In this document: in pieces, positions 14,404 through 52,746 of the stretch
Layout: every line of letters starts with the position of its first letter
Numbering within the stretch: the first letter of the stretch is position 1
NCBI GenBank assembly: GCA_964532425.1
Contig: CAZHIA010000006.1
Coordinates: 65,343-129,342, forward strand
Length of the DNA: 64,000 bases
Direction: 5' to 3'
Source: an uncultured Candidatus Saccharibacteria bacterium
GTDB lineage: Bacteria > Patescibacteriota > Doudnabacteria > UBA920
The notes under the pieces: model-generated
Told to the model about the DNA's origin: nothing
The model's database searches: none
What the model saw: only the letters and a program-made list of their open reading frames with translations
Program-made: the position numbers and the translations under genes

Positions 14404-14470
14404 CTGTAACATTTAACTTTTGACTATCACCCAAGGTCAAAGGTTAAAGGTCAAATGTCAAATGTTGAAT
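14404..14470. repeat. word-repeat inverted element (GTCAAATG/GTTAAAGG family), copy a
   Basis: Arms ACATTTAACTTTTGAC ... GGTCAAAGGTTAAAGGTCAAATGTCAAATGT, just upstream of def. Confidence 0.7.
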
Positions 14471-14991
14471 GTACTATGATTCTCCCTATCGTCATCTATC
14501 CTAATAAAATCCTTCGTGAGCCGGCCCAGCCGGTTGAGTTTCCATTGTCTAAGGAAATGGTAAAGCTGACGAAAGATATGATGGACACGGTACGGAACGC
14601 CGATGGAATCGGTCTCGCCGCTCCGCAAGTGGGCAAGCCGTACCGGCTTATCGTCATCAATCTGGAAAAAAACGGCGTACCGCTTATCGCCCTCTATAAT
14701 CCCAAAGTGGTTTCCCGGGGGTTTAAAAAAGTGGAAGTTGAAGAAGGCTGCCTGTCGTTGCCGGGTGTGTTCGGTATGGTCAAGCGACCGAAGAAGGTTA
14801 CAATCCAGGCACAAAACATGCAAGGTGAATTGGTGAAAATAACCGACGAGGGCTGGGTGGCCCGCATTGGCCAGCATGAGATCGATCATTTGAATGGCAG
14901 GCTGATTATCGACATGATCTCCAAGTACACCCAGGGTGGTGAGATTGCCAAAGAGTGGGAAAAAAACTACAAATCTACAAATAAGCGCTAA
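14455..14991 (+). CDS. def: peptide deformylase
   Basis: Motifs GIGLAAPQ, EGCLSLPG and QHEIDHLNG. An alternative start is Met at 14476. Confidence 0.9.
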   Translation: MSNVECTMILPIVIYPNKILREPAQPVEFPLSKEMVKLTKDMMDTVRNADGIGLAAPQVGKPYRLIVINLEKNGVPLIALYNPKVVSRGFKKVEVEEGCLSLPGVFGMVKRPKKVTIQAQNMQGELVKITDEGWVARIGQHEIDHLNGRLIIDMISKYTQGGEIAKEWEKNYKSTNKR

Positions 14992-15045
14992 TCTACAAAT
15001 ACCTACAAATTCCTCTAAGTGCATTTGTAGGTATTTGTAGATTAG
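14988..15045. repeat. perfect 23-bp-stem hairpin built from reiterated CTACAAAT words
   Basis: CTAATCTACAAATACCTACAAAT - 12 nt - ATTTGTAGGTATTTGTAGATTAG. Overlaps the def stop codon. No T-run. Confidence 0.8.
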
Positions 15046-15067
15046 TATTAATCCGAAGATTCGTAGT

Positions 15068-15604
15068 ATGAAATTTATTAAAGATATTCTCTTCTTCGAT
15101 TTTCAGGCTACGGGTATGGATCCCGATAAGGATAACATTATCCAACTTTCAGCTGTGCTGCTGGATAAGGATAATCTTCTTGAAAAAGGCAATTTCAATT
15201 CGTTCATTAGGATTTCGTACTTGGAAGGTACGATCACCCAGCACGCCAAACTCCTGCATATCGATTATGAAGTCTTGCGCAAGAGTCCGAAGATTTACGA
15301 TGTGGCTAAAACTTTCCATACGACGTTCGGTTCCAATCTGCTACTCGCGACCAACAACCTCACCAATTTGCTGTTCTTGAAAAGCGGGTTTAAAAAGGCG
15401 CTGGTGCCTTTCGATTACGACCCCCACATTATTGAACTGTGGACGCTCGGATATGTATACACTCTCAATTACGGATTGAAGAAAATGCCGACCTTTAATA
15501 CGTTTGTCGAGTATTTTAAATTAAAACAAGAACGGCCGTGGGACAGCCTGGAAAAAGTAAGATTAGAGGCAGAAATTTTCAGGAAGATAATTAAAGAAGC
15601 ATAG
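15068..15604 (+). CDS. DEDDh-like 3'-5' exonuclease paralog, catalytic residues degenerate
   Basis: Overall similarity to the downstream paralog. The Exo I motif reads FDFQATG (Glu replaced by Gln) and the C-terminal HxxxxD motif is missing. Confidence 0.55.
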   Translation: MKFIKDILFFDFQATGMDPDKDNIIQLSAVLLDKDNLLEKGNFNSFIRISYLEGTITQHAKLLHIDYEVLRKSPKIYDVAKTFHTTFGSNLLLATNNLTNLLFLKSGFKKALVPFDYDPHIIELWTLGYVYTLNYGLKKMPTFNTFVEYFKLKQERPWDSLEKVRLEAEIFRKIIKEA

Positions 15605-15650
15605 TAATCTCGAATATAACGAATATAGCGCAAATATACCAATAGCTATT
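15602..15650. repeat. 36-nt shared motif + AGCT-centred palindrome, copy 1
   Basis: TAGTAATCTCGAATATAACGAATATAGCGCAAAT followed by CCAATAGCTATTGG. Confidence 0.6.
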
Positions 15651-15728
15651 GGCCGTTCAAATAAACAAAGGACGGGGTGCGGTATTTGTATATTGGTGCT
15701 TGATTCGTAAATTAGAGAACCCTACTGT

Positions 15729-16292
15729 ATGAATTTCAAAAAAGACATTCTCCTTATTGACACCGAGTTTTCAGGTTTCGATCTCAAAAAACACGAATTG
15801 CTGCAGATTGCGGCGGTGTTGCTCGACAAGAAAACCTTGAAAGAAAAGAAGAGTTTTTGCAGTTATATCAAACCGACCCGCTGGAAGCATCGCGACGCGC
15901 AGGCGATGGCGGTCAACCAGATTACCTGGGAAATGGTAAAAGATGCTCCGTCATTGCGGCAGGTGATCTCCGCATTTGACGAGTTGTTCGACCATCAAGA
16001 AGTACTGCTAGCATCGTACGTCGGGTTTGCGGATAAACGCTACCTCTTGGAAGTGTACAGTAAGCTTGGGCTGCCGTTCAGGTTCGACTACCATTACTTT
16101 GACGTCTGGTCGGCATGTTATGCTTACTTTGCAGCCAAAGGCTTGCTGAAGAGCAAAAAGGATTTTGCCGGATTTGGCATGGATTACGGCATCAAACATT
16201 TTCAAATCCCCTCTTTCGGCAAACAGCACGATGCCTTAAACGATTGCCGTATCGAAGCGGAATTGTTGAGAAGAGTAATGAAAGAAATATAG
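15729..16292 (+). CDS. DEDDh 3'-5' exonuclease (DnaQ/oligoribonuclease-like)
   Basis: Exo I motif LIDTEFSG. Exo III motif HDALNDC near the C-terminus. Confidence 0.7.
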   Translation: MNFKKDILLIDTEFSGFDLKKHELLQIAAVLLDKKTLKEKKSFCSYIKPTRWKHRDAQAMAVNQITWEMVKDAPSLRQVISAFDELFDHQEVLLASYVGFADKRYLLEVYSKLGLPFRFDYHYFDVWSACYAYFAAKGLLKSKKDFAGFGMDYGIKHFQIPSFGKQHDALNDCRIEAELLRRVMKEI

Positions 16293-16294
16293 TG

Positions 16295-16406
16295 CAACAT
16301 TTGACATTTAACCTTTAACCAGTAACTTACCTGCCCACCGCAGTCGTATCGGGGCGAGTGATTTTTGCAAATTGGTCAAATGTCAATTGTCAAAGGTTAA
16401 ATGTTA
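16295..16406. repeat. word-repeat inverted element, copy b (about 110 bp, MITE-like)
   Basis: Arms CAACATTTGACATTTAACCTTTAACC ... GGTCAAATGTCAATTGTCAAAGGTTAAATGTTAC flank a 50-bp GC-rich core, between the exonuclease gene and fmt. Confidence 0.7.
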
Positions 16407-16420
16407 CTAAAATCCATACT

Positions 16421-17344
16421 ATGCGCATAGTTTTTTTTGGAACCTCGAACGTTGCTTTGCCGGTTTTGGACCTGCTGCAGCGGACCTATGAAGTTGCGGC
16501 TGTTGTGACGCAGCCGGATAAACCGGTTGGCCGCAAACAAGAACTGTCTCAAAGCCCGGTATCGGTCTTGGCCCAGGAGATGGGTGTAAAAACACTGAAA
16601 CCAGACCGGGTCAAAGGCAATGATCTGTTTAGAATGGAACTGGCTGGTTTAAACGCAGATCTTTTTATCGTAGTTGCGTATGGGAAAATATTGCCCAAGG
16701 AAATCATTGAGATGCCTCGTCTGAAGACTCTCAACGTACATTTTTCCCAGCTTCCCAAATACCGTGGTCCCTCCCCCATCCAGTTCGCGCTCTTAAACGG
16801 CGACCCGGTCACGGCGACGAGCATCATGGTGCTCGATGAAGAATTGGACCACGGCCCGGTCCTGACTGCCGAAAAATACACCATCGCATCGGATGATAAC
16901 TATTTGAGCTTGTCGACGAACCTTGCTCATGTTTCCGCCCGGGTGCTCAGCACGATGCTGCCTGACTATGCGGAAGGTCGCCTAGCTGCTGTCGAACAGG
17001 ACCATGCGCAGGCTACCTATACCAAGATCATCACCAAGGATGATGGTCGTGTTGACTGGAGTAAAACGAGCCGGCAAATTTACAATCAATTCAGGGCGTT
17101 CTTCCCCTGGCCCGGCATTTGGACGAAATGGAATGGCAAGGTCCTAAAAATTACCGATTGCTCGGTACTTGAGGGACAGGTTTCTGACCAGCCCGGTACC
17201 GTACTGGACGGCGGAACAGTCGCCTGCGGGGACGGCACACTGCTCCGCATTTCCAGCCTGCAGCTGGAAGGGAAAGCGGAAACGGATATTGCTAGCTTTT
17301 TAAATGGCTACCGGAATTTTACCGGGAGCAAGCTGGGAGAATAA
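16421..17344 (+). CDS. fmt: methionyl-tRNA formyltransferase
   Basis: Start at MRIVFFGT. Formyltransferase N-domain plus C-terminal domain. Classic def-fmt neighbourhood. Confidence 0.9.
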   Translation: MRIVFFGTSNVALPVLDLLQRTYEVAAVVTQPDKPVGRKQELSQSPVSVLAQEMGVKTLKPDRVKGNDLFRMELAGLNADLFIVVAYGKILPKEIIEMPRLKTLNVHFSQLPKYRGPSPIQFALLNGDPVTATSIMVLDEELDHGPVLTAEKYTIASDDNYLSLSTNLAHVSARVLSTMLPDYAEGRLAAVEQDHAQATYTKIITKDDGRVDWSKTSRQIYNQFRAFFPWPGIWTKWNGKVLKITDCSVLEGQVSDQPGTVLDGGTVACGDGTLLRISSLQLEGKAETDIASFLNGYRNFTGSKLGE

Positions 17345-17357
17345 ATGTAAATAACAA

Positions 17358-17389
17358 TCCCGCAACGGTAGTCGTTGCGGGATTTTTGG
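17358..17389. terminator. bidirectional intrinsic terminator
   Basis: ATCCCGCAACG-gtagt-CGTTGCGGGAT followed by TTTTT. Confidence 0.75.
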
Positions 17390-17405
17390 TTGAGCGTGCG
17401 TATGG

Positions 17406-18017
17406 CTATGCGCAGCGCGAAAGAGTTCTCTCTTTGTGATGATACAGCAGGATGGTCATCATGATCGTCTCGATCACAAAAAAGGTGACCGGTTGCGCCG
17501 CCTCCTTGAATTCAATGAGAGCGAGCGAGGCGGGGTCGAAGGTCAGATTCGGAATTCCTGCGACTCCCAAAGCACATGAGACCCAATAGATGCTCCAGGC
17601 CAGCAGATTTTCATTTCGCCAGTTCTCGAACGTCGGCTTGGAAGCCATGAAGGTCACTGCACAGCTGGTCAAGATGGCGAGGCTTGGAGCAACAAACAGG
17701 AAGATGATGCCTGCGATGGCAGCGATCAGATACTTCCTGTCTTTGGGTTCCCAGCCTTTTTGTCCGTACTTGAACACAGTGGCGAGGACGATAAGTCCGC
17801 CAAAACTGACCCCAATGATCTGGCCCAAGCCTTCGGCGCGTTTGCGGATCATGCCGATCATGTTGATCCAGTCCAGGGACATCCAAATGAGCCAGCTGAC
17901 TTTTTTCGGTCCAGGTTTTCCTTGGCGCCCACCCTGGATGGTGGCGATGATATACGGAATAAACCCTACAATGAACAGCGTACCTGACAGTAACCGGAGC
18001 CACTCTTTGAGTGACAT
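17406..18017 (-). CDS. polytopic membrane protein, function unknown
   Basis: About 6 hydrophobic segments. Confidence 0.55.
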   Translation of the reverse strand: MSLKEWLRLLSGTLFIVGFIPYIIATIQGGRQGKPGPKKVSWLIWMSLDWINMIGMIRKRAEGLGQIIGVSFGGLIVLATVFKYGQKGWEPKDRKYLIAAIAGIIFLFVAPSLAILTSCAVTFMASKPTFENWRNENLLAWSIYWVSCALGVAGIPNLTFDPASLALIEFKEAAQPVTFFVIETIMMTILLYHHKERTLSRCA

Positions 18018-18159
18018 CTCCCCTCCTTAAAACTGTAATCTGAATTCCTTATATTTAAGCATAAAATATTATTTTTGTCAATTTCAATCAATTACTCAAA
18101 TTTAAAATCCCTGCAACACTTTCGTACTGCAGGGATTGCACTTTTTTTGAGGTAGAAGA

Positions 18160-18570
18160 CTAAAAGCACGCACGGGCAGCGGTTCGCATCCGGTCCATTC
18201 GGATGCGGAGAGCTGTTTGCACCCGCACCGTGGTTCCGATGAGTTTTCCAAGGACGTACGGTTTGATTTCCGTGCCAAGGCTGATGAGCAGGCTCGCAGC
18301 AGCTCTTTTGAGCGGAGTCAGCGCGTCATATAATCCTTGCAGATCTTCCAGGTCATCGGCAAACTTCCGGCTTTGAATCTTCCCATAGGTATTCAAAGCA
18401 GCTGTGGCTGAACTGGCTGCGTCCAGAATTCTTTGGGGATCGTGCCCAGAGCTTTCCGATGCGGCGATTGCTTGAGATGCGCTCACGAGTGCATCTAGGT
18501 CAAAAAGCGGATTTAGTTTGGCAGCAGCTCGGTTCCGATTGAGTTCGACAAAATCGGAGAAGGCGTGCAA
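18160..18570 (-). CDS. hypothetical protein
   Basis: ORF only. Confidence 0.4.
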   Translation of the reverse strand: MHAFSDFVELNRNRAAAKLNPLFDLDALVSASQAIAASESSGHDPQRILDAASSATAALNTYGKIQSRKFADDLEDLQGLYDALTPLKRAAASLLISLGTEIKPYVLGKLIGTTVRVQTALRIRMDRMRTAARACF

Positions 18571-27932: not shown

Positions 27933-28976
27933 TTAGTGTTTGTTAAATATTCGTTCAGCCATGGAGTCCGCTACGGCATTGGTTGAATTGCCGGTTTGTT
28001 TACTGGCTGTAAAGATTTTGCGCAACATGGTAGGGATATTCTCCAGCCGTTTGAGCAGGCGTTGTTCGTCCTGGTTGTGGTTTTCATACTCATCGACAAC
28101 CGAGATAAGCCCCCCGCCGTTGAGGACATAGTCAGGCGCGTACAGGATGCCGGAATTATGCAGCATGTCCCCTACCGAGGCTTCGGTCAGTTGTCCGTTG
28201 GCTCCGCCAGCAACGATCGCTGCTTTGATTTTGCCGATGTTTCCCTTGTTGAGAACCGGGCCCATGGCGCAGGGGCTGACAATATCGGTGCGCACATAGA
28301 GAATCTTATCCGGCGACATCAGCTCGATTTTGGGATATTTTTTCTTTGCTGCAGCCGCAGCCAGTGGGTTAATGTCTGCCGCATAAATGCGCTTGGCGTG
28401 CTTGTACACGAGGGACAGCAGGCTGCTGCCAATTTTGCCAAGGCCCTGAATGGCGATGCTTCTGCTGTTTAAAGATGAACTTCCAAAGACTTCCTGGAGA
28501 CATACTTCAATACCTTTGTGGATGCCGATGGCCGTATATAATACCGGATCAACTTCAACGCCAACCACGAAGGGGGTGGCTTTTTTCATGATTTTGACAT
28601 CGTGTGCGCTCACGCCAAGGTCTGCTCCGGTAACGAATTTGCCGCCGAGCATGCTGACGCGGTTGGCGTATGCCCCGAGCAATTGGCCTCTGCTTTTGAG
28701 CGCTTTGGGATTTGCTATAATGACCCCCTTGGCTCCCCCGTACTTAACCCCGGCCATGGCGGCTTTGTAGGACATGAGTCGTGAAAGCCGCAGGGCATCC
28801 CGCAGCGCATCCTGGTCATTGCCGTATACGGCAATGCGGGTTGCGCCAAAACTGGGAAACCCGTTATCGCCGCGATGCAGGGCAATATAAGCGGAGAGGT
28901 GCGATTTAGGATCTTCCACCCGCGCTACGAACCGGTGGTCATCAAACTCCCGAACCTGGGTATATGCTTCAGACAT
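27933..28976 (-). CDS. Glu/Leu/Phe/Val-type amino-acid dehydrogenase
   Basis: Catalytic-lysine motif KYGGAKGVI. NAD(P) Rossmann motif GLGKIGSSL. Confidence 0.8.
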   Translation of the reverse strand: MSEAYTQVREFDDHRFVARVEDPKSHLSAYIALHRGDNGFPSFGATRIAVYGNDQDALRDALRLSRLMSYKAAMAGVKYGGAKGVIIANPKALKSRGQLLGAYANRVSMLGGKFVTGADLGVSAHDVKIMKKATPFVVGVEVDPVLYTAIGIHKGIEVCLQEVFGSSSLNSRSIAIQGLGKIGSSLLSLVYKHAKRIYAADINPLAAAAAKKKYPKIELMSPDKILYVRTDIVSPCAMGPVLNKGNIGKIKAAIVAGGANGQLTEASVGDMLHNSGILYAPDYVLNGGGLISVVDEYENHNQDEQRLLKRLENIPTMLRKIFTASKQTGNSTNAVADSMAERIFNKH

Positions 28977-29085
28977 GGTGTTAACTGGTGCTTTTTGTAT
29001 CTTAGGCGAACTTTTTTCTAAAGATAGTATATCACTTTTTTCTTAAATATGCTATAATTAGAATGAATTTAAGCAATTTTGTCAC

Positions 29086-29466
29086 ATGAAAAAAATACTC
29101 GTTATCGAAGATGACATTGCCATGCGGGAGATTGTCGTGCGCAAACTCTCCACAAACGGCTACGAAGTCAAACAGGCCGAGGACGGACAGAAGGCTCTGG
29201 AGCTGTTCGGTGCCGAGCATCCGGATTTGGTTCTGCTCGATCTGATGCTCCCCGTGGTTGACGGTTTCCATATTTTGGAAGCTATCCGCCATTACGATGA
29301 CAAGAAAATCGCCGATACGCCGGTCATAGTATTGAGTAATCTGTGGAGCAATCAGGATATCTTGCGGGCGCAGTCTTTAAATGTGCAAGGGTACATGGTC
29401 AAAGCCTATCATACCCCCGAGGAGATATTGGCCAAGGTTAACGAAGTGCTTGGTATCGGAAAATAA
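29086..29466 (+). CDS. stand-alone response-regulator receiver (CheY-like)
   Basis: Acid pocket DD, phospho-acceptor Asp in LLDLMLP, conserved T/S and K positions. No output domain. Confidence 0.85.
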   Translation: MKKILVIEDDIAMREIVVRKLSTNGYEVKQAEDGQKALELFGAEHPDLVLLDLMLPVVDGFHILEAIRHYDDKKIADTPVIVLSNLWSNQDILRAQSLNVQGYMVKAYHTPEEILAKVNEVLGIGK

Positions 29467-29539: not shown

Positions 29540-29812
29540 TTACAGGATGGAATCCTTTGCCTGCTTGGCAACGCGGAACTTCAGGACGGTCTTGGCCGGG
29601 ATCTGAATGGTCTCGCCAGTAGCCGGGTTGCGGCCCTGTCTGGCATCGCGATGCTTCTTCTGGAGTTTCCCGAGGCCCGGGATGGTGAATTCACCGGTCT
29701 TTTTGGTTTCTGCAACCGCGAGGTTCACGAGTGCTTCCATGAATTCGCCGGCTTCTTTGCGAGTCTTACCCAGCTTATCAGCCAGGGCCTGCAAGGTTTC
29801 TGACTTGGTCAT
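29540..29812 (-). CDS. hupB: DNA-binding protein HU
   Basis: 90 aa. GRNPATGE..IP arm motif. Confidence 0.9.
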   Translation of the reverse strand: MTKSETLQALADKLGKTRKEAGEFMEALVNLAVAETKKTGEFTIPGLGKLQKKHRDARQGRNPATGETIQIPAKTVLKFRVAKQAKDSIL

Positions 29813-31249: not shown

Positions 31250-31304
31250 GGTAGTAATCTCTAATATAACGAATATAGCACAAATCCGCCAGCTGGCGGA
31301 ACAA
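31250..31304. repeat. 36-nt shared motif + AGCT-centred palindrome, copy 2
   Basis: TAGTAATCTCTAATATAACGAATATAGCACAAAT followed by TCCGCCAGCTGGCGGA. The same 16-bp palindrome recurs at 55093..55108. Confidence 0.6.
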
Positions 31305-31433
31305 ATATCATGAATACATCGAATCTGCGAATTTGACGAATCTGCGAATAACTACGAATATACGAATTCGTTGAACATTCGTTGATTCGATAAATTATTA
31401 GATAAGCCGCCCCTCTTGGGCGGCTTATTCAAT

Positions 31434-37160: not shown

Positions 37161-37351
37161 AATAAGAATGACAAGATTGAACAGGATTGATCAAGATTGC
37201 CAAGATTTATAATTACATAATCAGTGTACCGCAAAAGTACCTTAATTTCCACCATGGTATATGCGGTCGCTCAATAAAAAAGCATGTATCATTTTCGGCC
37301 TAAAGCGATACATGCCTAAGTGGAATGGGTGAAAGAGTTTTCAGACAGCCT

Positions 37352-39036: not shown

Positions 39037-40110
39037 TCAACTCTTCGGAGTGCGGGGAGTGGTTGATTTGCTCATGCAATGTTCCCAGTACCGGATTCCT
39101 GCTGGAAGTTGTTTATTCCAGGTGTTCCAATTATGGGTGCCGCCGGTAAGGACGAGCGTGTGGATTACGCTGGTAGCGGCGAGCTGCTGGTCAAATTCCC
39201 GGTTCTCTTTGACCAGGCTTGGCCAGTCATACTTGCCCACCGCCTGGAATACACACAAGTTTTGTGGCAGCGTTAACTGTCCAAAATAGCGAGCCGGGCT
39301 TTGTGCATCCTTGGCTGATTGGTTATTGCCGAATACGGCATTCAATTGTCCCCGCCAATTGTCGAAATAGGCTCCATACGCCAGAATGCTCCCGTATATT
39401 TCAGGATGCCGGAGTCCCAGGTTTACCGCACCATAGCCTCCGGACGAATTGCCTCCTATGGCACGCCCGCTCGGATCGGAAAGTGTCCGGTATCTGTGTT
39501 CCGCGTCAGTCCGTATATCGGTGACTATAAAATCTTCCATCCGCTGCTGCGCAGTCGATGCATTCACATATTGGCTATCGGCAATTTTTGGACCATTGCC
39601 ATCCGGGAAGACAGCCAAGAATGGCCGTGCGTCCCTTGCTACAATCAGTTGGTTAAAGACCATGGCTGCATCGCCGTTGGCCGGCCAGTCGCGAAAATTT
39701 CCGGGATAGCCGTGAAGCAGATAGAGAACCGGATATCTGCGGTCCTTGTGCTCGTCATATCCTTCGGGAACATAGACTGCATAAGTGCTGGTGGCTTGCA
39801 GGGCGGAGCTGAAAAAACTCACTGTGTCGATGCGGCTGCCGCTTTTGGGCAGGTTTCGATGTTTGATTCCGTAATAAGTCTGGTATGCAGCTTGCTGGCC
39901 AACTACGAAGATCCTCGTTCCGAAAAAAATCAATAGCACCGCCGCTGCGGTAGTGAGCGCTATGGCTCGTTTGTGCTTTTTGTTGAATATGGTATACATA
40001 TTTTCAATGCAGGCATTCCCTGTGCGTGTATGCTTTGCCTGTTGCAGATGGTCAAATGTCAAATGTAAATTGTCAATTGTTATTGCTAATCTAGGGAGAA
40101 CAATGAGCAA
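39037..40110 (-). CDS. alpha/beta-hydrolase esterase (putative secreted)
   Basis: Nucleophile elbow GNSSGG. N-terminal anchor. YLLHGYPG motif of the esterase-D/'putative esterase' family. Confidence 0.7.
   Translation of the reverse strand: MLIVLPRLAITIDNLHLTFDHLQQAKHTRTGNACIENMYTIFNKKHKRAIALTTAAAVLLIFFGTRIFVVGQQAAYQTYYGIKHRNLPKSGSRIDTVSFFSSALQATSTYAVYVPEGYDEHKDRRYPVLYLLHGYPGNFRDWPANGDAAMVFNQLIVARDARPFLAVFPDGNGPKIADSQYVNASTAQQRMEDFIVTDIRTDAEHRYRTLSDPSGRAIGGNSSGGYGAVNLGLRHPEIYGSILAYGAYFDNWRGQLNAVFGNNQSAKDAQSPARYFGQLTLPQNLCVFQAVGKYDWPSLVKENREFDQQLAATSVIHTLVLTGGTHNWNTWNKQLPAGIRYWEHCMSKSTTPRTPKS
40050..40085. repeat. word-repeat element, copy c (single arm)
   Basis: GGTCAAATGTCAAATGTAAATTGTCAATTGT. 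Confidence 0.6.
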
Positions 40111-40152: not shown

Positions 40153-41784
40153 TTATGTCATATGCGCTTGTGCCAGCGCTACCGCGATCTTTGGTAGCTC
40201 GGTTTCGCCCGGGTATATAAGGAATCGGGGCTGCCAGACAGGGTGAAATTTGGCTTTGAATGCCGCCAGACTCTGGTAATGATAGAGTTGGTTAAAATTT
40301 TTGTATAAGAAATCAACTGCTTTTTGAGCAAGCTGCGAGTCGGTGTGCGGGCTCTCGGTTTCCCTGGTGGCCAGCCCCAGACTCACTTGCCGGCAATCCC
40401 GGTTTTTAAAATATTCAATAGATTCGCAAAACGCGGCCTCGACAGTTCCGCTTGGTGCTAGTGGTGATTTGAGCATAAGGTCGAGCGCCATGGCTGTACC
40501 AAGATCGTATGGATAGTAGGAAAATGCCGCTACAATTTTTCCGTCAGTGCTGCCTGCCAGGAGCCAGCCGTCATCAAGCGGTGGGAACGGATAATAATGA
40601 GTCGAGAAGCCCATAGAACGGTTGTTGTGAGCGGTAAGCCAGTTGTGGTGCAGCGTCTCGATCTGGCTCAGCACCAGCCATGGTACTTCTGATAGTCGGT
40701 GCCATTGCCAAAGCAGGCCGCTGCGTCGGGCTGCTGCTGCGGCGTTCCTGACATTTTTCATAGCAGGGGTATTGAGATTAAATTCCGCGGTCTGCACGGC
40801 TGCGTCATCCCCGACCTTGAGGGCTTTCATGCCGAGCGATTTGTAATGTCCGAGATTGTGTTCGGCTACCAAATAAAAGACCACGCTTAATCCCCGCTGC
40901 TGCATGGCGGCATAAAATTCTTCTATAGCTCCCAGCCTCGCACCCTCGGGTCCTAAGGGGTCCCCCAGAGCTACCGCAGTGCCTTGGCGGATTTTGTAGG
41001 CTACTACCGATTCACGGTTTTGGGTAAAAAAATATCTTTTGTCGGGCATGAGCGATAAATAGGCGGTGGACAGAGAACCGTGGCGTCTTGCAAGTTCGAG
41101 TACTGCCGACTGTTCTGCTTCAGTTGGTGTGGATGGAAGCAGGTCCGGACCGAACAGAATGGCCACAATCGAAAGCAGGACTAGAATGCTAATTGCGGTG
41201 ATCGAATCTTGAAACCATAATGCCTGATGAGTGAGCGGGACGAGGGTATTGCTGCCGAGACCTGTGATGGTGTATATATAATCGGAAACGATGGTATGCC
41301 ATGAGATTGGCCGGGTAAATTGTCCTTGCAGGAGAAAATAGCCGGCGGTCGAATATACTCCTAAGAGCAAAAACAGTACCGCTCCCCTGCGAGCGCGCTG
41401 GACGAGGGTTAACCGGGCGCTGGCAATGGTGAATTCAAATCTGAAGGCAACCAAAAGAATGAGGGGGATGGCGGTTAACGATGCATCCTCAACATCAAAA
41501 CCTTTTATGATATGGAAGACCAGGGAGGCGGCAAGCAGGCTGACGGTGATGAACCAAGCCCTGCGCTTTTTATTCCAAATTCCGCGCGCGAGGAACAGCA
41601 AAAAGAAACCCGAGAGCACTGATAAGGTTTTTGATGCATGGCGTACAGCCAACGGAAACCCTTCTTCAAGCACTATGATTCGAGCCGGGATAACCGGATG
41701 GAAGGCGGAGAAAATATCCAGCAAACCGGCAGCAAATACAATGAGGCCGATAATGACGCTCGGACTGAACCTGATTTTTTTCAT
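40153..41784 (-). CDS. MprF-like aminoacyl-phosphatidylglycerol synthase family protein (multi-TM + DUF2156-like domain)
   Basis: About 7 N-terminal TM helices and a 300-aa C-terminal soluble domain. Family assignment by overall resemblance only. Confidence 0.45.
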   Translation of the reverse strand: MKKIRFSPSVIIGLIVFAAGLLDIFSAFHPVIPARIIVLEEGFPLAVRHASKTLSVLSGFFLLFLARGIWNKKRRAWFITVSLLAASLVFHIIKGFDVEDASLTAIPLILLVAFRFEFTIASARLTLVQRARRGAVLFLLLGVYSTAGYFLLQGQFTRPISWHTIVSDYIYTITGLGSNTLVPLTHQALWFQDSITAISILVLLSIVAILFGPDLLPSTPTEAEQSAVLELARRHGSLSTAYLSLMPDKRYFFTQNRESVVAYKIRQGTAVALGDPLGPEGARLGAIEEFYAAMQQRGLSVVFYLVAEHNLGHYKSLGMKALKVGDDAAVQTAEFNLNTPAMKNVRNAAAAARRSGLLWQWHRLSEVPWLVLSQIETLHHNWLTAHNNRSMGFSTHYYPFPPLDDGWLLAGSTDGKIVAAFSYYPYDLGTAMALDLMLKSPLAPSGTVEAAFCESIEYFKNRDCRQVSLGLATRETESPHTDSQLAQKAVDFLYKNFNQLYHYQSLAAFKAKFHPVWQPRFLIYPGETELPKIAVALAQAHMT

Positions 41785-41885
41785 ATGGGTACTATAACAA
41801 AAACAGTCGAATTACTGGAAATTTTTCCAACCGACTGCTTGTCAAGACTGTTTTTCGGAAAATTTTGTGGATAACTGGGACTTTC

Positions 41886-42418: not shown

Positions 42419-43069
42419 TTATTGTAAAAACCGGAAATTTGTCAGTAGCGGAGAAACGGCTACTTGCTGCCTGAGGTAGTAAAGCTTGCCGCGGGCTAAT
42501 ACGGCGATGCCACTCTGGGATGCGGACCTGCCGCGAAAGCGGACCGCCGGCTGCCCGTCGACGGTGGTCTCGGCGACCGATATAACGGAAGGAGATTTTT
42601 TGAGCATGTTGGTAACTGACTGCAGTGTTTCCTGTGACGGAAGGTCATACATTTCCACATAGCCGTTCTTGCCACCCGGGCCTGAAAAAGAGACCATGTT
42701 CGGCTGCTGGTCTTGGTTTACCTGCCAGGTAGTCGGCAGCTGCAGTTGGAATCCGAAATTTGAATTGGAGTAAAGCATTGGCTGCTGAGGTGTCCGAACA
42801 GGGGCTGGCGAAGGTGCTACTGCGGCGGGGTTGGTCGTTGTTGCCGCCTGGGGCGGATTGCCATTGGCAACCGGCGTGGTGCTTGACTGCTCACCGAGCG
42901 GCGGAACAAATGCCTGGCGAATTTGATCTGCGGTGTCAGAAACTGCCGGTTCTGGTTGTTTATTGCGTTTCCAAAAGAACCATACCGCACCGGCGATAAT
43001 AAGCAGGCCAATGACCGCTAATATGATTGTGCGGACCGGGCTGGCGCCGGTCTCTCGTGCTTCTGCCAT
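42419..43069 (-). CDS. signal-anchored hypothetical protein
   Basis: Single N-terminal TM. P/T/Q-rich linker. Confidence 0.5.
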   Translation of the reverse strand: MAEARETGASPVRTIILAVIGLLIIAGAVWFFWKRNKQPEPAVSDTADQIRQAFVPPLGEQSSTTPVANGNPPQAATTTNPAAVAPSPAPVRTPQQPMLYSNSNFGFQLQLPTTWQVNQDQQPNMVSFSGPGGKNGYVEMYDLPSQETLQSVTNMLKKSPSVISVAETTVDGQPAVRFRGRSASQSGIAVLARGKLYYLRQQVAVSPLLTNFRFLQ

Positions 43070-43084: not shown

Positions 43085-43170
43085 AAGATTGAAGTATTTA
43101 ACATTTAAATATTGACTGCATATCATAGCATACATGACTGGATCTTTCAATCTTTAAATGTTAAATCTTG
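43085..43170. repeat. word-repeat element, divergent copy e
   Basis: TTAAAGATTGAAGTATTTAACATTTAAATATTGAC ... TTCAATCTTTAAATGTTAAATC. Shares the AACATTTAA..TTGAC word order. Confidence 0.5.
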
Positions 43171-43177
43171 TAATTGC

Positions 43178-45305: not shown

Positions 45306-45328
45306 CCCGGCGACCGTGTTCTGGTACC

Positions 45329-47216: not shown

Positions 47217-50200
47217 ATGGGTCCACTGGAATCACGCATGCTATCACTCCAGGAGTGGCTGGCTCAGAGGAAAATGCGGGGTATAATTGTTACCCTGATC
47301 GTTTTGGTTGTGCTCGAAATTGTGACGCATCGCACCCGGTTTAATGTCGTCAATCCGGGTTTGTTTTTACTTATTGCTGTTGTCTATGCAGCTTTTATCG
47401 ATGGCATGATGGCCGGGCTGGTAAGTGGCACGCTCGGCTTTTTGTATTCTCTATATTTTTTCTCTCGTGATGGCCGCCTATTCACCTACACACCCGATGA
47501 CCTAACCCGGGTTATTGCCCTGTTCGTCTCCACTTATGCGATTGTGTATATGACCGGCTGGCTCAAACAGCAGAACGATCTGAAGACCCGGCAGCAGGAG
47601 CAGCAGCGCCTTCAGGAGTTGCAGGAAGACAAGATATGTGTTTTTGCTGATGCTTTCCCTAATATTATTTGGACGATGGCCAGCGATGGTACGTACGAAT
47701 ATTTTAATAATACCTGGTATGAATTTTCAGGATTAACGAGGGTGCAGACGTTCGACCATACGATCACCCGATCCCTCATACACCCAGAAGATATACAGCG
47801 AGTGCTGGAGCGCTGGTGCCAGTCTCGGGAGAGTGGTCAATCACTGGAGATTGAATATCGTCTCAAGTCAAAAGCTGGGGAGTTTCGCTGGTTTATGGCC
47901 AGGATCGTTCCGGTCAAGAACGCCCAGGGCGCGGTTATTAAATGGTTCGGTTCCGCGACTGACATTCACAAGCAGCGCAAGGTTGAAGCAGAATTGGAAA
48001 ATTCCAAGCGGCAGCTGGAGGCGGTGTTAGCGAATGTGGCAGACGGCCTCGTGGTGCGTAATTTCCAGGGCCGGATCCTTTTTACCAACGGAGCGGCATT
48101 ACGCATTTTTGGGGTCAGTTCGGTGGAAGAACTGTCCGAATTCCTCTCATCTGATGTTTCGCATGGTCTTAATTTTCGCGACATTGATAACAGGCCGGTA
48201 CATATGCAAAAGCTTTTTATGCCTACGCCTGGCAAGAACGGTACTGGGACTGATCCGCAGATATACAGTCTTGTTGGCAATGCAATTACCGCAAAGCGAT
48301 GGGTCTCCATTTCCGCCACTTCCATTGTGAATTCCCCCGCTGCCCCCGATCTGTACGTGTCTGTTATCCGGGACATTACGAATGAGCGTAAGGCCATCAT
48401 TGAAACGGAACGATTAGTCGCCCAGCAGGAGTTTCTCGCCCGCGCCGGCGAGCTACTCACTTCTTCTTTGGACCATGAAACAACACTCAAAAGCCTCACC
48501 AGGCTCATTGTGCCAAGGCTTGCCGAATGGACAGTCGTGCATTTGGTCCAACCTGACGGAGCAGTGGTTGAGGTGGCGGCGGCCCACGTAGACCAGGAGA
48601 AGGAAAGGAGGCTCGTGAAAACTCTCGGTACTCGGAAAAACGAGCAGGGTGAACTAGCAACGCCGAGTTGGATGCTCAAAGTTGTGCAGACCGGCAAGCC
48701 CGAATTTCACCCTATCGTGAACGAACAAACTATATCGGCTATTACGCTCGGCACCGAGCACACACGGATGATCCGGGAAACTGGAATCCGTTCGATCATG
48801 GTGGTTCCGCTAAAGAATTTAGACCAAGTGATTGGCACAATCTCTTTTGCCTACACCGATACGGACAATCATTTTTCGGAGAGCGACTTACAAATGGCAG
48901 AAGAGCTGGCACGGCGCGCCTCGATAGCCATTCAGAATTCCAAACTGTATCACCAGGCACGGGAGATTGCGTCCCGCGAACATGAGCACGCTGCTCTTAC
49001 CGAGACTTTACTCGGCAATGCCCCGGTCGGTTTTGGGTTTGTCTCTTTGGATTACAAGTTTTTGCAGGTCAACAACGCTCTCGCTGCCATGAACAGCGTC
49101 AGTCCTCGGGATTTGCTTGACCGGCGCTTGAGCGAAGTCCTACCCGACCTGGCTGAAGTAGTCGAGCCTCAGTATGACCACGTAGTAAAACATGGGGAAC
49201 CGGTGGTTGATTATGAGATTAGCGGGTATACGCCGGACAATCCGGAGCGGCTGCGACACTGGTTCTACAATTTTTTTCCAGTGCGCAATACCGACAGTAA
49301 ATTGAGCGGAATCGGCATTATTGTTGCGGAGGTGACTGACCGCAAGGAAGCCGAACGGGAGATTCATTACCGCGCATACCATGATATCCTGACTGGTTTG
49401 CCGAACCGGAAATATTTTGACGAACGCCTGGCATACGTGCTCCATCGGTCCAAGCGCGACCATCACAAATTTGCCGTATTGTTCATCGACATGGACCGAT
49501 TGAAGAACATTAACGATTCGCTCGGGCATGACATCGGCGATACGGTCATTCGCGAACTTGCGGAACGCCTCAAAAAAACGTTGCGTGCTGGGGATGTAGT
49601 GGCGCGCTGGGGAGGCGATGAATTCGTGATCTTGCTGCCCGAGCTTTCGGTTATAGCAGACGCGGTCAAAGTTGCAGAAAAGATCTTGAAAACCGTGGAG
49701 CCGTCCCTCCGGATTGGCGTCCATACGCTGCACATGACGGTGAGTATTGGCATTGCAGTCTTCCCGAATGATGGAGAGGATGTTCAGACGCTGCAGAAAA
49801 ATGCGGATATCGCCTTGTACCGCGCCAAAGAGGCTGGCAAGAACCGCTACGAGCTGTATAACCAGCAAATGAATGTTAAAGCTTCCGAGCGCCTGGCTCT
49901 GGAAAACGATTTGCGGCAGGCTCTCGCCAAGTGCCAGATGGACCTCTACTATCAGCCAATCCAAGATTTAAAAACCGGACGTATCGTATCGGTCGAAACG
50001 CTGCTCCGTTGGCGGCATCCGCGTTTTGGCCTCTTGTCCCCGCTCCGATTTTTACCCATCGCGGAAGAAACCGGTATCATCTCCCAGCTCGGTTCATGGG
50101 TTATTGACCAGGCCGTCTCCCACATGGCTGAGCTGAACCTTACCAGCGGGCCTATGCGATTTTCGATCAATATTTCAGCGCGTCAATTTTCCGAGGGCGG

Positions 50201-50702
50201 GCTGGTTGCCGGCATTATCGACCGCCTGCAGGCGCATCAATGCAGTCCGGAGCTGCTTGATATTGAAATTACCGAGAGTCTGGCTATGGAAAATCTCGAT
50301 CGGACTCGGAATACGCTCGATGAATTGAAACAATACGGAATCTCTATTACGGTCGACGATTTTGGAACCGGCTACTCTTCCTTGAACTACCTGAAGCGTC
50401 TACCAATTGACCGCCTCAAAATAGACAAATCTTTTGTCCGGCATGTCTTGACCGATGAGCAGGATACCAGCATTATCAAAGCCATTACTTCAATGGCAGA
50501 AAGTTTGCATTTGAAGGTTGTTGCGGAAGGGGTGGATACCGAGATGCAGTTGAATCTTTTGCGGTCGCTCGGCTGCCATGCGGTTCAGGGTTATCATATT
50601 AGCCGCCCGCTGTCGCGACATGAACTAGTGGCATTCTTGAATAAGAAGAACCAAGAGATTTCTCCGGTACAGACACAGGTGGAGGAAGGAGCACAATCTT
50701 AA
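47217..50702 (+). CDS. membrane-anchored PAS-GAF-PAS-GGDEF-EAL signalling protein
   Basis: RWGGDEF diguanylate cyclase motif. EAL signature (EITES, DDFGTGYSS). N-terminal TM helices. 1161 aa. Confidence 0.9.
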   Translation: MGPLESRMLSLQEWLAQRKMRGIIVTLIVLVVLEIVTHRTRFNVVNPGLFLLIAVVYAAFIDGMMAGLVSGTLGFLYSLYFFSRDGRLFTYTPDDLTRVIALFVSTYAIVYMTGWLKQQNDLKTRQQEQQRLQELQEDKICVFADAFPNIIWTMASDGTYEYFNNTWYEFSGLTRVQTFDHTITRSLIHPEDIQRVLERWCQSRESGQSLEIEYRLKSKAGEFRWFMARIVPVKNAQGAVIKWFGSATDIHKQRKVEAELENSKRQLEAVLANVADGLVVRNFQGRILFTNGAALRIFGVSSVEELSEFLSSDVSHGLNFRDIDNRPVHMQKLFMPTPGKNGTGTDPQIYSLVGNAITAKRWVSISATSIVNSPAAPDLYVSVIRDITNERKAIIETERLVAQQEFLARAGELLTSSLDHETTLKSLTRLIVPRLAEWTVVHLVQPDGAVVEVAAAHVDQEKERRLVKTLGTRKNEQGELATPSWMLKVVQTGKPEFHPIVNEQTISAITLGTEHTRMIRETGIRSIMVVPLKNLDQVIGTISFAYTDTDNHFSESDLQMAEELARRASIAIQNSKLYHQAREIASREHEHAALTETLLGNAPVGFGFVSLDYKFLQVNNALAAMNSVSPRDLLDRRLSEVLPDLAEVVEPQYDHVVKHGEPVVDYEISGYTPDNPERLRHWFYNFFPVRNTDSKLSGIGIIVAEVTDRKEAEREIHYRAYHDILTGLPNRKYFDERLAYVLHRSKRDHHKFAVLFIDMDRLKNINDSLGHDIGDTVIRELAERLKKTLRAGDVVARWGGDEFVILLPELSVIADAVKVAEKILKTVEPSLRIGVHTLHMTVSIGIAVFPNDGEDVQTLQKNADIALYRAKEAGKNRYELYNQQMNVKASERLALENDLRQALAKCQMDLYYQPIQDLKTGRIVSVETLLRWRHPRFGLLSPLRFLPIAEETGIISQLGSWVIDQAVSHMAELNLTSGPMRFSINISARQFSEGGLVAGIIDRLQAHQCSPELLDIEITESLAMENLDRTRNTLDELKQYGISITVDDFGTGYSSLNYLKRLPIDRLKIDKSFVRHVLTDEQDTSIIKAITSMAESLHLKVVAEGVDTEMQLNLLRSLGCHAVQGYHISRPLSRHELVAFLNKKNQEISPVQTQVEEGAQS

Positions 50703-50810
50703 TTCCCAATTTCCAATATCCAATTTCCAATAAAATGCCAAATCCCCAAAATCTTATATGCAAAACAGCTCGTTTCGTTAGAAATTGGAAATTTGGAATT
50801 GGAAATTAAC
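50703..50810. repeat. inverted-repeat element built from TTCCAAT words
   Basis: CCAATTTCCAATATCCAATTTCCAAT ... ATTGGAAATTTGGAATTGGAAATT arms around a 50-bp core. Followed by the terminator at 50811..50834. Confidence 0.7.
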
Positions 50811-50836
50811 AAAAATCCCCTTTTCGGGGATTTTAG

Positions 50837-51247
50837 TTATTGCTTCAGTAAATTGTACAACCCCAGTGTCTGTTTGACCTTTTTGACAAGCTCATCCATG
50901 GACCAGTGGCTTTTGACAATATGTTCGAGCACTCCTTTTTTTGTACCGAGGATCTCGCTGATTTTCTCCACCTCGCTCAAGTTACTAATTATGATGACGG
51001 GTATTCCCTGCCCCTCAGTATCGTTTCGTAGCTTCTTGAGCATTGTCAATCCATCCATAGCTGGCATGATGATATCGAGTAAAATCAGATCGGGTTTGGT
51101 CTTGAGGGCGGCCTTCAGGCCTTCTTCCCCGTTTTGCGCCTGGGCAACTTCAAAACCATCCCGAGTAAATTTATCGGTCAGGACTTCTAGCAAAGCGCCT
51201 TCGTCTTCGATAATCAAAATTTTTTTCTTTCCTTGCGTTTTGGCCAT
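50837..51247 (-). CDS. stand-alone response-regulator receiver
   Basis: Start at MAKTQGKKKILIIEDE (ORF opens at 51475). Receiver motifs. Confidence 0.8.
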   Translation of the reverse strand: MAKTQGKKKILIIEDEGALLEVLTDKFTRDGFEVAQAQNGEEGLKAALKTKPDLILLDIIMPAMDGLTMLKKLRNDTEGQGIPVIIISNLSEVEKISEILGTKKGVLEHIVKSHWSMDELVKKVKQTLGLYNLLKQ

Positions 51248-51365
51248 GCGGCGTTGGTTAATGGCTATTTCCTGAGACGTTCGGTGGTTTTTCGCCTTAC
51301 GCGGTCTGCGGTCTTTAGTATACCAGAGCCAACTGGCTTCGTCGATGGAATACCGCTCGCGATGA

Positions 51366-52655
51366 TTATAAGAGCTTTTCCAGCGGGCAAACACAAAACG
51401 GCACAAGCATTTCCGCGTGCGACAGGCCGCCGTGGACCCCTTTTTGATGGAAGGGGTAGCCCGGAAAGTGATCATACCAGACGTGATGGTCTGGTAGAGG
51501 TAAAATGAGTACGTTGCCGATACGGCGCAGGAATTTTTCCGAGGGTTTATGCAGGCCGAACAATCCGCTTTTCAGGGCTTGCTGTGTAGGCAAGACCTTG
51601 GCTTGGCCCGTTAATTCTTGCTGCAGCAGTTTTATGGCACTATTCAATTCGGGTGGATGAATGAACAAAAAAACGTCATGCGGAGCGCCGGTCGGCGGAA
51701 TAATCTCTTTTTTATGCATCCATGCGTATTTGGCGGTCAATTCAAGGTATTTGTTGAGGTAGATAATATCTTCGCCTTTGATATTGGACTGCCCATGGTC
51801 TGCAGTCAGCAAAACGAGGACATCTCCGGCTGCAGTCTTATCGAGCTCACCCAAAAAGCGGCTGGTGAACAGGTTTGAGAAGGATTCGAGTTCTGAAACA
51901 TGTTCCTTGCTGTTCGGTCCAAAACTGTGCTCGACCTGGTCGATAAAGTGCCAGTAGACTAAGAAGAACGCGGGACCATTGGTATTCACCAGTTTATCTT
52001 TGAGTTTTTGTACGAGGTCATTCCCATGAGTGAACGCGACTGCCTCGCTCCCCTTGCTGATGGCTGATTGGTACGCGCCTTGGATGTATTCGTGATATAC
52101 GAAATTGTGTGAAGCAATGCCTGCTTCGGCCAGGCGTTCGTAGACGGTCCGTCCGTCATACAGCATCTCAGCGGTGCCTCCGTGCCGGAGCAGGGCGTTT
52201 GGCTCGCTGGTCCGGATCATTTTGAACGGCAAGGTCTCGATAACTCCTTTGAGTTCTTCGAAATACACAAACCATTCCGGCAGCCCATGTTCTTGCGGGG
52301 TCATGCCGGTATGAATGGTGGTCAGTGCGGCGGGAGTCGTCGATGGAAAGACAGATGTCAGCGGAAAGACATCGCCGCGCTCTTCAAACCGGGACAGAAA
52401 TGACATCTGCTCATGGTAGGTTAAAAAATGGTCGAACCCCAAACCGTCAATCACAAACAAGATGACCTTCGAAAACTTCTTTCCGTACCGGTCGAACAAG
52501 CGTTCTTTGAATGTCGGGCGCTGGTGGGCGATCCCGAAATATTCCAGGATGGAAGGCGTAACTTCGGCAATGGAAAAACTGCCGTAGTCCGGCTTCAGGA
52601 AGCCTTCCCAGGACTGGCGCTTTTCGATATCGGCAAGTAGATCTTTATGGATCAT
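51366..52655 (-). CDS. alkaline-phosphatase-superfamily protein (type I phosphodiesterase/nucleotide pyrophosphatase-like)
   Basis: VIDGLGFD metal-site motif and LLTADHGQ motif. Confidence 0.65.
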   Translation of the reverse strand: MIHKDLLADIEKRQSWEGFLKPDYGSFSIAEVTPSILEYFGIAHQRPTFKERLFDRYGKKFSKVILFVIDGLGFDHFLTYHEQMSFLSRFEERGDVFPLTSVFPSTTPAALTTIHTGMTPQEHGLPEWFVYFEELKGVIETLPFKMIRTSEPNALLRHGGTAEMLYDGRTVYERLAEAGIASHNFVYHEYIQGAYQSAISKGSEAVAFTHGNDLVQKLKDKLVNTNGPAFFLVYWHFIDQVEHSFGPNSKEHVSELESFSNLFTSRFLGELDKTAAGDVLVLLTADHGQSNIKGEDIIYLNKYLELTAKYAWMHKKEIIPPTGAPHDVFLFIHPPELNSAIKLLQQELTGQAKVLPTQQALKSGLFGLHKPSEKFLRRIGNVLILPLPDHHVWYDHFPGYPFHQKGVHGGLSHAEMLVPFCVCPLEKLL

Positions 52656-52670
52656 GGCGGTGTTATTGTG

Positions 52671-52746
52671 AACATGTAACCTTTGCCTTTGACATTTAAC
52701 TTTTCGAAAGTGGTCAATTGTAAAATGTTAATGGTCAAATGTTATC
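52671..52746. repeat. word-repeat inverted element, copy d
   Basis: AACATGTAACCTTTGCCTTTGACATTTAAC ... GGTCAATTGTAAAATGTTAATGGTCAAATGTTA. Confidence 0.7.

Follow-up and report, generated by a model that had tools for sequence, protein, structure and literature searches.

What are the short word arrays that recur between genes in an uncultured Patescibacteria genome, and what could they do there? The DNA analyzed is a stretch of 64,000 nucleotides (the window) from an uncultured Candidatus Saccharibacteria bacterium of the GTDB lineage Doudnabacteria (assembly GCA_964532425.1, contig CAZHIA010000006.1, positions 65,343 to 129,342). A first-pass annotation, made from the sequence alone, described five intergenic sites with inverted arrays of short words next to gene starts. 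It proposed that they could be miniature mobile elements, structural repeats of the repetitive extragenic palindromic (REP) type, or iterated binding sites for one regulator. The presence of heptad arrays, their 7-nt period, and their restriction to intergenic DNA are plain features of the window. The arrays, with consensus GTYAAWK, very probably constitute a genome-specific intergenic family of heptanucleotide simple sequence repeats (SSRs) of the short tandemly repeated repetitive (STRR) type. The full explanation that we favor, an SSR family that originated by slippage and has a role at the RNA level, is given a probability of about 0.55.

Repeat unit and sites

The heptanucleotide GTYAAWK is the unit at all five sites (numbered e1 to e5; Table 1), where it forms head-to-tail arrays of 2-5 units. 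The coordinates in the first-pass annotation were checked, and all five carry the words with a strict 7-nt period. Regular expression matches for the heptad lie exactly 7 nt apart (for example, 14436/14443/14450/14457 and 16375/16382/16389/16396), and Tandem Repeats Finder reported a period of 7 with 3.3-4.4 copies at 14433, 16296, 16375, and 40051. Spacing, repeat finder, and heptad parse all give a unit of 7 nt, which replaces the earlier description of 7-8-nt words. Arrays have at least three units, the size that defines a heptanucleotide SSR, although the arms of e4 hold just 2-3.

The paired sites all read 5'-(MWTTRAC)n ... (GTYAAWK)n-3'. An oppositely oriented partner array is present in four of the five sites (e1, e2, e4, and e5) and absent from e3, where the earlier description of a reverse-complement array at each copy does not hold. 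Arm-to-arm gaps are ~10 nt in e1 and e5 and ~48 nt in e2; in e4 there are ~36 nt between the heptad arrays and 31 nt between the inverted-repeat arms. These gaps of ~10 to ~50 nt do not agree with a uniform separation of 30-60 bp. Element lengths range from 36 to 115 bp across the five sites. Each arm of e2 has 3-4 good units plus degenerate end units. Site e4 is a short, degenerate family member, with three units on the minus strand at 43096-43116 (GTCAATA TTTAAAT GTTAAAT) and two on the plus strand at 43153-43166 (TTTAAAT GTTAAAT).

Searching for three tandem GTYAAAK units with up to 3 mismatches gave 18 matches against 0.03 expected, and every match was within the five sites. The 10 kb of intergenic DNA contains 11 tandem heptad pairs, whereas separate shuffling of every intergenic segment predicts 0.01 and gave at most one pair in any of 1000 shuffles; the 54 kb of coding DNA in the window had zero. 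Local AT-rich low complexity is ruled out as an explanation by these intergenic-only shuffles, and together with the zero in coding DNA they support the description of dispersed, non-random, intergenic inverted word arrays adjoining gene starts. The sample (SRR11567520) also has an independent Logan assembly, which is identical over 6.1 kb, including e2. GTYAAWK recurs at five loci in 64 kb, and no further GTYAAWK arrays were found in the 4 kb past the right edge of the window.

Table 1. Word arrays and operon boundaries in the window
Feature	Position	Strand	Description
e1, 5' arm	14397..14424	-	4 heptads, minus-strand reading GTCAAAA GTTAAAT GTTACAG GTCAATT
e1, 3' arm	14436..14470	+	5 heptads GTCAAAG GTTAAAG GTCAAAT GTCAAAT GTTGAAT
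e2, 5' arm	16292..16326	-	minus-strand reading GTTACTG GTTAAAG GTTAAAT GTCAAAT GTTGCAC
e2, 3' arm	16375..16409	+	GTCAAAT GTCAATT GTCAAAG GTTAAAT GTTACTA
e3, solitary array	40051..40085	+	5 units GTCAAAT GTCAAAT GTAAATT GTCAATT GTTATTG
e4, short inverted pair	43096..43166	.	20-nt arms, 95% complementary
e5, arm on start side	52673..52700	-	minus-strand reading GTTAAAT GTCAAAG GCAAAGG TTACATG; 2 good and 2 degenerate units
e5, arm on stop side	52713..52747	+	GTCAATT GTAAAAT GTTAATG GTCAAAT GTTATCA; 4-5 units
def / first RNase T-like junction	14966..15067	+	word CTACAAAT, period 8-10, 45-nt arms
RNase T-like / RNase T-like junction	15605..15728	+	words CGAATATA / TATATTCG, stop-to-start span; fold z = -3.6
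heptamer pair with another word	50699..50809	+	(CCAATTT)n ... (AAATTGG)n
operon left boundary	14054..14108	+	canonical terminator 14054-14083; -10 box TATACT 14097-14102
operon right boundary	17356..17384	.	bidirectional GC-rich terminator 3' of fmt

The sites could be MITEs (miniature inverted-repeat transposable elements) or foldback elements, with tandem heptads as terminal inverted repeats and a transposase encoded elsewhere. They are intergenic with inverted ends and number 4-5 copies in 64 kb, arms that are almost identical recur elsewhere in a relative that is distant at the protein level (L127, discussed below), and insertion sequence (IS) elements lie beside similar paired repeats in Geobacter (PMC2700814). 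However, only the word is common to the copies, and their internal sequences (~9, 10, 31, and 48-55 nt) are unrelated, so the first-pass description of MITE-like units does not stand. Inspection by eye revealed no flanking direct repeats or target duplications. Toward their ends, the arrays grade into degenerate heptads (GTTAC.., GTTGC..), so the termini cannot be fixed. Site e3 is single-armed, no transposase was found among ~50 scanned open reading frames (ORFs) of the window or in the gene tables of syntenic relatives, and orthologous spacers are never a clean empty site. We consider mobility very unlikely.

REP, bacterial interspersed mosaic element (BIME), and REPIN repeats have as their unit a GC-rich imperfect palindrome of conserved sequence, which is spread by a REP-associated tyrosine (RAYT) transposase. 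Within operons, REP and BIME repeats are frequently located just 3' of stop codons, and their inverted doublets fold and can stabilize the upstream mRNA. The sites described here have a similar intergenic, inverted, hairpin-forming layout, but they consist of AT-rich tandem heptads with no internal palindrome, and no Y1 transposase or RAYT gene was found in the window. Assignment to this class was rejected. Among the options offered by the first-pass annotation, "structural repeat" is the closest, without the REP part.

Gene context

All five sites lie between co-directional gene pairs. In sense-strand order, the spacers contain the stop codon, the MWTTRAC arm, the loop, the GTYAAWK arm, and the start codon. 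Site e1 separates a 97-aa gene (14109-14402) from def; its 5' arm overlaps the TGA stop (14400-14402), and its 3' arm ends 5 nt before the def ATG (14476), which has no Shine-Dalgarno sequence. Site e2 separates the second RNase T-like gene from fmt. Its 5' arm begins at the TAG stop (16290-16292), and the fmt start codon (16421) is preceded by TAAAAT plus 7 nt. The other three sites are in minus-strand spacers. Site e3 is between the stop of the LPG synthase gene (40153) and the start of a probable esterase gene (39999), and e4 is between the stop of a response regulator gene (43178) and the start of a 216-aa gene (42419-43069). The two arms of e5 adjoin the stop of a DUF4037 gene (52754) and the start (52655) of a type I phosphodiesterase gene (51366-52655). 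The last heptad is 5 nt from the ATG of def, 11 nt from fmt, 17 nt from the phosphodiesterase gene, and 26 nt from the 216-aa gene. No Shine-Dalgarno sequence (GGAGG) precedes these four starts, and most genes of the window have none.

Sites e1 and e2 are inside one five-gene operon with canonical boundary signals (Table 1). The -10 box at its left boundary is 6 nt 5' of a leaderless ATG at 14109. All four internal junctions of the operon hold inverted repeats of tandem words. The junctions before def and before fmt both use GTYAAWK, and none of the four has a U-tract or a terminator call. Leaderless starts may be common in this DNA. TATAAT-like -10 boxes, often TGnTATAAT, are found 6-7 nt 5' of the ATG without a Shine-Dalgarno sequence at genes 7732-9021, 14109-14402, 40153-41784, 56431-57075, and others, which suggests frequent leaderless mRNAs in the window. 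At 41785-41885 and 56323-56430, a terminator hairpin abuts the -10 box of the following gene.

Position next to stops and starts could also indicate transcription signals, either terminators of the upstream gene or promoters in which TTGAC of the 5' arm serves as the -35 box. The 5'-arm word does include TTGAC(A/C), a promoter-like TTGAGA-16-TATAGT ends at 16293 just before e2, and TAAAAT is 7 nt before the fmt start. Promoter-like matches, however, numbered 6 against 5.2 in shuffled sequence, with none inside the arrays, and by eye the spacing between -35 and -10 boxes is inconsistent across copies. The AU-rich stems have no U-tract and were not called as terminators (those of e1 and e2 are ~30% GC with no T-run), whereas terminators elsewhere in this genome are GC-rich and canonical. 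The transcription-signal reading is thus the least probable of those considered, and we give it very little weight. Known RNA families were also rejected; an Rfam search of the window at the gathering threshold matched three tRNAs only.

Relatives

Comparison of orthologous spacers indicates whether the word or the layout is retained. Fmt is 57-67% identical to proteins from Patescibacteria/Doudnabacteria metagenome-assembled genomes (MAGs), and its nearest matches in genome collections are candidate-phyla-radiation MAGs, none of them identical. Look-ups of exact matches to a 1161-aa protein and to def gave no hits. The def/RNase T/RNase T/fmt cluster is syntenic in five relatives (labeled L002, L003, L005, L009, and L248), with Fmt identities of 50-67%. 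The junctions of these relatives have inverted repeats of tandem words that extend from stop to start, and the words differ by junction and by species. They include TACAGATA, TACGAAG, and TTAGTAGA in L005, TGTCAATC and ATTAGTG in L002, AGGTTAT in L248, and ATTAGAA in L009. In at least six species, the internal junctions of the def-fmt operon all have an inverted repeat, even with full turnover of the sequence. Of 22 inverted repeats of this kind, 7 contain the upstream stop codon in the 5' arm, and another 9 have it no more than 14 nt away. Co-directional spacers with a fold z below -3 make up 41% in close relatives and 17% in other bacteria, and fewer than 10% of divergent spacers fold this well.

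Spacers of L248 and L249 are unrelated, and the strain pair L003/L004 differs by 27 substitutions, none of them in spacers. In L127, arms near-identical to those of e2 precede rpmA, and the protein common to the two loci is only 60% identical. Co-regulation of def and fmt through common GTYAAWK arrays was rejected because the sharing of arrays is not conserved in the relatives.

A tract of ~27 nt, AATCTGTTCCCATCYGTGYATCTGYGA, is directly 5' of the fmt start and is conserved in L002 (~9960-10000) and L248 (~5965-6000). This tract may be a sequence-specific signal. Compensatory evolution between the L002 and L248 fmt spacers was considered and rejected; the 27-nt tract is kept and its pairing partners differ, so these spacers give no evidence of covariation.

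Distribution in other phyla

A survey of ~80 fmt-centered loci (~1.4 Mb) from diverse phyla was used to examine the arrays without bias toward a particular word. Period 7 accounted for 66 of 109 short intergenic arrays. In non-relative loci, 19 of the 63 intergenic arrays had an inverted partner, as did 15 of 37 arrays in close relatives; reversed or complement-only controls gave 0-3 (1-3 for non-relative loci). Co-directional spacers had 3.6 times the array density (per kb) of divergent ones (p = 3e-4). Several survey arrays have the upstream stop within the 5' array and a 3' array that abuts the start codon. Examples of words are AGTAACG / ACTCGTC in Nitrospirota, GGTWACT in Planctomycetia, and GTGAAAC / TTTCACG in Gemmatimonadales. 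Stop-to-start geometry, operon position, conservation of layout with turnover of sequence, and a class of arrays that spans phyla are established observations.

The words themselves are not random. The window and L002-L085 together gave 53 unit words, in which GTCA/TGAC cores occurred 11 times against 2.3 expected and GTGA/TCAC cores 9 times against 2.8, and many words are quasi-palindromic (GTNAC plus 2 nt). A metagenome scan with three GGTYAAW-type heptads recovered at least 120 contigs. Arrays recovered in the metagenome and viral scans included ~37 long satellites, and for ~20-25 of the listed GGTYAAW-type arrays a partner of three or more heptads lies in inverted orientation no farther than 250 nt away; the contigs concerned have a GC content of 37-64%. 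In IMG/VR, 42 contigs have a GGTYAAW-type pattern, mostly as plain tandem arrays.

Heptamer arrays just 5' of fmt (~9870-10000) were observed in L022, L026, L027, L030, L031, L079, and L009. Their hosts are Acidobacteriota, Nitrospirota, Thermodesulfovibrionales, Planctomycetia, and a candidate-phyla-radiation MAG, and their words are ACCTGAT, AGTGACG/CTCGTTA, TAACTTT, AGTAACG/ACTCGTC, GGTWACT (11 copies), and AGTAGGA (8 copies). The 5' array includes the upstream stop codon in L026 and L030. Enrichment specific to fmt is mild: ~11 of 66 arrays are located there, and 6-7 would be expected were arrays spread evenly over co-directional spacers.

The omega repressor of pSM19035 is a ribbon-helix-helix protein, and its operators are contiguous 7-bp WATCACW units in direct or inverted orientation, one per dimer. 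The arrays in the window resemble these operators in having contiguous 7-bp units in direct and inverted runs. In contrast, the omega operators are plasmid promoter sites with one word and a known reader, whereas here a genome has many words. By analogy, the arrays could be iterated binding sites, one heptad per protein subunit, that would control transcription or translation of def, fmt, and the other flanked genes. Candidate readers would be omega-like ribbon-helix-helix or HU/IHF proteins on double-stranded DNA, or cold-shock and S1-type OB-fold proteins on single-stranded RNA.

Several findings are in line with a protein reader. Contiguous heptads are in direct and inverted runs beside gene starts, and e3, which is solitary and has no hairpin, raises the possibility that function resides in the array itself. 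GTYAAWK-type arrays are found at a different gene (rpmA) in L127 and in contigs that differ widely in GC content, the GTCA/GTGA cores are enriched across phyla, the window encodes HU (29540-29812), and binding has been proposed for similar repeats (PMC4679880, PMC2700814). On the other hand, other junctions of the same operon have unrelated words, and the orthologous def and fmt spacers of the five syntenic relatives have other words, which indicates that there is no conserved regulon. The first-pass suggestion of iterated sites for one regulator fails on the same two observations. The scanned ORFs of the window include no ribbon-helix-helix protein or other candidate, and the heptamer families of the cited literature are without an identified binding protein. 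Control by a heptad-binding protein is therefore considered unlikely.

Similarity to described repeat families

To our knowledge, heptamer repeats are still without a demonstrated function or mechanism after more than 30 years. We found no literature reports of such repeats in Patescibacteria. The class itself has already been described in several bacterial groups, and the uncultured Patescibacteria host is what is new here.

Among long-unit SSRs, heptanucleotide repeats are cited as the most abundant in the majority of prokaryotic genomes, and polymerase slippage has been suggested as their source (Mrazek 2007, as cited in PMC4679880 and PMC4692102). Three tandem heptanucleotide families are cited for Calothrix (PMC4692102). 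As far as these two papers describe the STRRs and long SSRs of Calothrix and Nostoc, the arrays in the window are similar in having a 7-nt unit, few copies, an intergenic location, and a recurring, lineage-specific word. They differ in the word (GTYAAWK rather than CCCCAGT, TTGGTCA, or CAACAGT) and in their Patescibacteria host. A preprint on Nostoc reports that heptamer repeats affect expression of recF and recO, with no mechanism given (10.1101/2022.06.06.494920).

Xanthomonas genomes have ~185 GGGAATC arrays, most often of four units, which are intergenic and depleted between divergent genes; no function was found (Rehm et al. 2015, PMC4692102). Each genome has 70-75 close pairs of arrays on opposite strands that are capable of forming stem-loops (PMC4692102). 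The arrays described here are likewise intergenic heptamer arrays with opposite-strand pairs. However, G-quadruplexes form from the G-rich Xanthomonas word but cannot form from the AT-rich GTYAAWK, and the pairs in the window span stop to start in very short spacers.

In marine Beggiatoaceae, cyanobacteria, and Bacteroidetes, forward TAACTGA arrays are found a few nt before starts that have no Shine-Dalgarno sequence (MacGregor 2015, PMC4679880). They precede housekeeping genes, and a role in translation was proposed with S1, Csp, and CsrA as candidate readers (PMC4679880). The window has similar forward arrays that end 5-26 nt before non-Shine-Dalgarno starts, which is a resemblance and not membership because the word differs. 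Inverted pairs also distinguish the two, at 1 of 170 for TAACTGA and 4 of 5 here.

Geobacter metallireducens has three classes (1-3) of paired opposite-strand sites with 3-5 tandem repeats of 7-9 nt, for which IHF/HU binding was guessed (PMC2700814). These sites have tens of copies and are species-specific, and IS elements are located at fixed distances from the paired repeats (PMC2700814). Opposite-strand pairing at variable distance and short tandem units are common to those sites and ours, but the Geobacter words are different and GC-richer, and IS elements insert near them.

Proposed origin and role

We propose that the arrays originated and turn over by replication slippage in 7-nt steps combined with inverted duplication through strand switching, and not by transposition. 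They would be transcribed within polycistronic mRNA, where each inverted pair would form an AU-rich intercistronic stem-loop. Minimum free energy folds are of this kind, with proximal heptads paired in an AU-rich stem and the last 17-25 nt before the ATG unpaired. The e1 RNA folds at -20.4 kcal/mol (z = -2.8), and the z values of e2 and e4 are -1.8 and -2.9. A ribosome that arrives at the upstream stop would have to open the base of the stem, since the stop codon is in or next to the 5' arm, and this makes a role in punctuation or as a landing tract possible. Close to the start codon, the distal heptads may stay unpaired and provide a tract with little structure. The transcript could be punctuated or stabilized by the pair, which could also support Shine-Dalgarno-independent, possibly coupled, initiation. 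This RNA-level role is the tentative part of the explanation, and we hold it with less confidence than the assignment to an SSR family.

A number of results weigh against this explanation. Slippage in 7-nt steps is inferred and was not observed directly. Hairpins of the GTYAAWK family are thermodynamically modest, with z between -0.8 and -2.9. When each copy was folded, as the first-pass annotation had proposed, e1, e2, and e4 were modestly stable, but e5 (z = -0.8) was no better than shuffled sequence and e3 (z = +0.5) had no significant fold. In a low-power test, mismatches in sense-strand stems showed no excess of G.U over A.C (12:16 in close relatives and 11:21 in others), and hence there is no signature of RNA-specific selection. 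A second low-power test found no bias between sense and antisense folding energies. One genome shares 92.5% Fmt identity with L248, and its fmt spacer is an unrelated 47 nt with no hairpin, which indicates that turnover is fast and that the element is dispensable at the fmt junction. The heptamer pair at 50699-50809 is in a convergent spacer and not before a start. Enrichment of GTCA/GTGA cores is beyond what slippage alone explains and hints at a sequence-reading factor.

Several of these results would also fit neutral by-products, with slippage-prone tracts and inverted duplicates filling the tolerant short spacers of a streamlined genome. Turnover is fast enough that the fmt junction of a close relative was replaced, hairpins are weak or absent at e5 and e3, stems have no G.U bias, and arbitrary words occur in many phyla; the literature reports no function (PMC4692102). 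Neutrality alone, however, does not account for the 3.6-fold depletion of arrays in divergent relative to co-directional spacers, for inverted repeats throughout the junctions of the def-fmt operon in at least six species despite turnover, or for stop and start codons at the feet of the stems and the core bias of the unit words. We regard the purely neutral reading as improbable, about on a level with a dedicated binding protein, and retain slippage with an RNA-level role as the favored explanation.

A broader version of the RNA-level role would make inverted heptad arrays a general programmable intercistronic device of Shine-Dalgarno-poor bacteria. In one form, a terminating ribosome would open the 5' arm and re-initiate on the freed heptad tract. 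In another, a conserved single-strand binder that reads heptads (cold-shock or S1-like) would toggle the stem-loop. Such a device would account for co-directional enrichment, GTCA/GTGA cores, and stop-to-start geometry. We consider it doubtful, more so than either binding sites or neutrality.

Other arrays and neighboring features

The two remaining junctions of the def-fmt operon have arrays of other words (Table 1). The repeat at 14966-15067 runs from inside the 3' end of def, including its stop, to the last base before the start of the first RNase T-like gene (15068), and it folds at -41.7 kcal/mol (z = -11.3). The pair at 50699-50809 is 3' of the stop of a GGDEF/EAL gene and is followed by a canonical terminator. 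The first-pass annotation had noted a def hairpin (14988) and an element at 50703 as similar in style; the architecture is common to all, and the words are different. Further arrays with other words are located at 31320-31367, 37171-37207, 55382-55414, and 11865-11904. The one at 55382-55414, four copies of CTTTATAA, ends 4 nt 5' of the ATG of an unannotated small ORF (~55419-55570). By eye, this ORF is similar to ribosomal protein L33, and it is just 3' of a tRNA (55216-55288).

A 31-mer, TAATCTCKAATATAACGAATATAGCRCAAAT, is present twice in the window (15605-15635 and 31255-31285; 0 expected). Its opposite-strand reading is a promoter-like region (TGCTATATT) before queA. The hairpin that separates the two RNase T-like genes uses the copy at 15605 as its 5' arm, and minus-strand promoter-like calls were made there.

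Just past the right edge of the window, a stretch of the same genome (L250) has three copies of a hairpin, CCCTTCTAAG...CTTAGAAGGG, at its positions 810-903, 1414-1485, and 2209-2330. These are followed by a strong Shine-Dalgarno sequence (GGAGGATT) and an ATG. Junction stem-loops of this genome thus also occur where the downstream gene has a Shine-Dalgarno sequence.

Other repeats and genes were observed in the window. A 15/45-nt tandem repeat (7165-7274) lies within a gene similar to type IV secretion system pilins (6681-7727). The divergent promoter region that separates 27933-28976 from 29086-29466 has a 25-nt tandem duplication (29010-29056). An 887-aa ORF at 57420-60083 on the plus strand has matches to a vault repeat (PF17795) and to the shoulder domain of the major vault protein (PF11978, 1.1e-19). 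The GC content of this region is 0.59, compared with ~0.49 elsewhere, and the vault-protein-like gene may have been acquired horizontally.

Significance

The window adds a candidate-phyla-radiation lineage to the hosts of heptamer repeats. It also provides a clean anatomy of the arrays, in which each internal junction of a single operon is an inverted word-array hairpin that extends from a stop codon to a non-Shine-Dalgarno start. For annotation, such arrays should not be labeled as MITEs or operator sites. The same regularities (period 7, ~30% inverted partners, divergent depletion, and cores) are found in Nitrospirota, Planctomycetota, Gemmatimonadota, Omnitrophota, and others, which hints at a common cause. 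If the device interpretation were true, inverted heptad arrays would replace Shine-Dalgarno initiation at most operon junctions in Doudnabacteria-like Patescibacteria.

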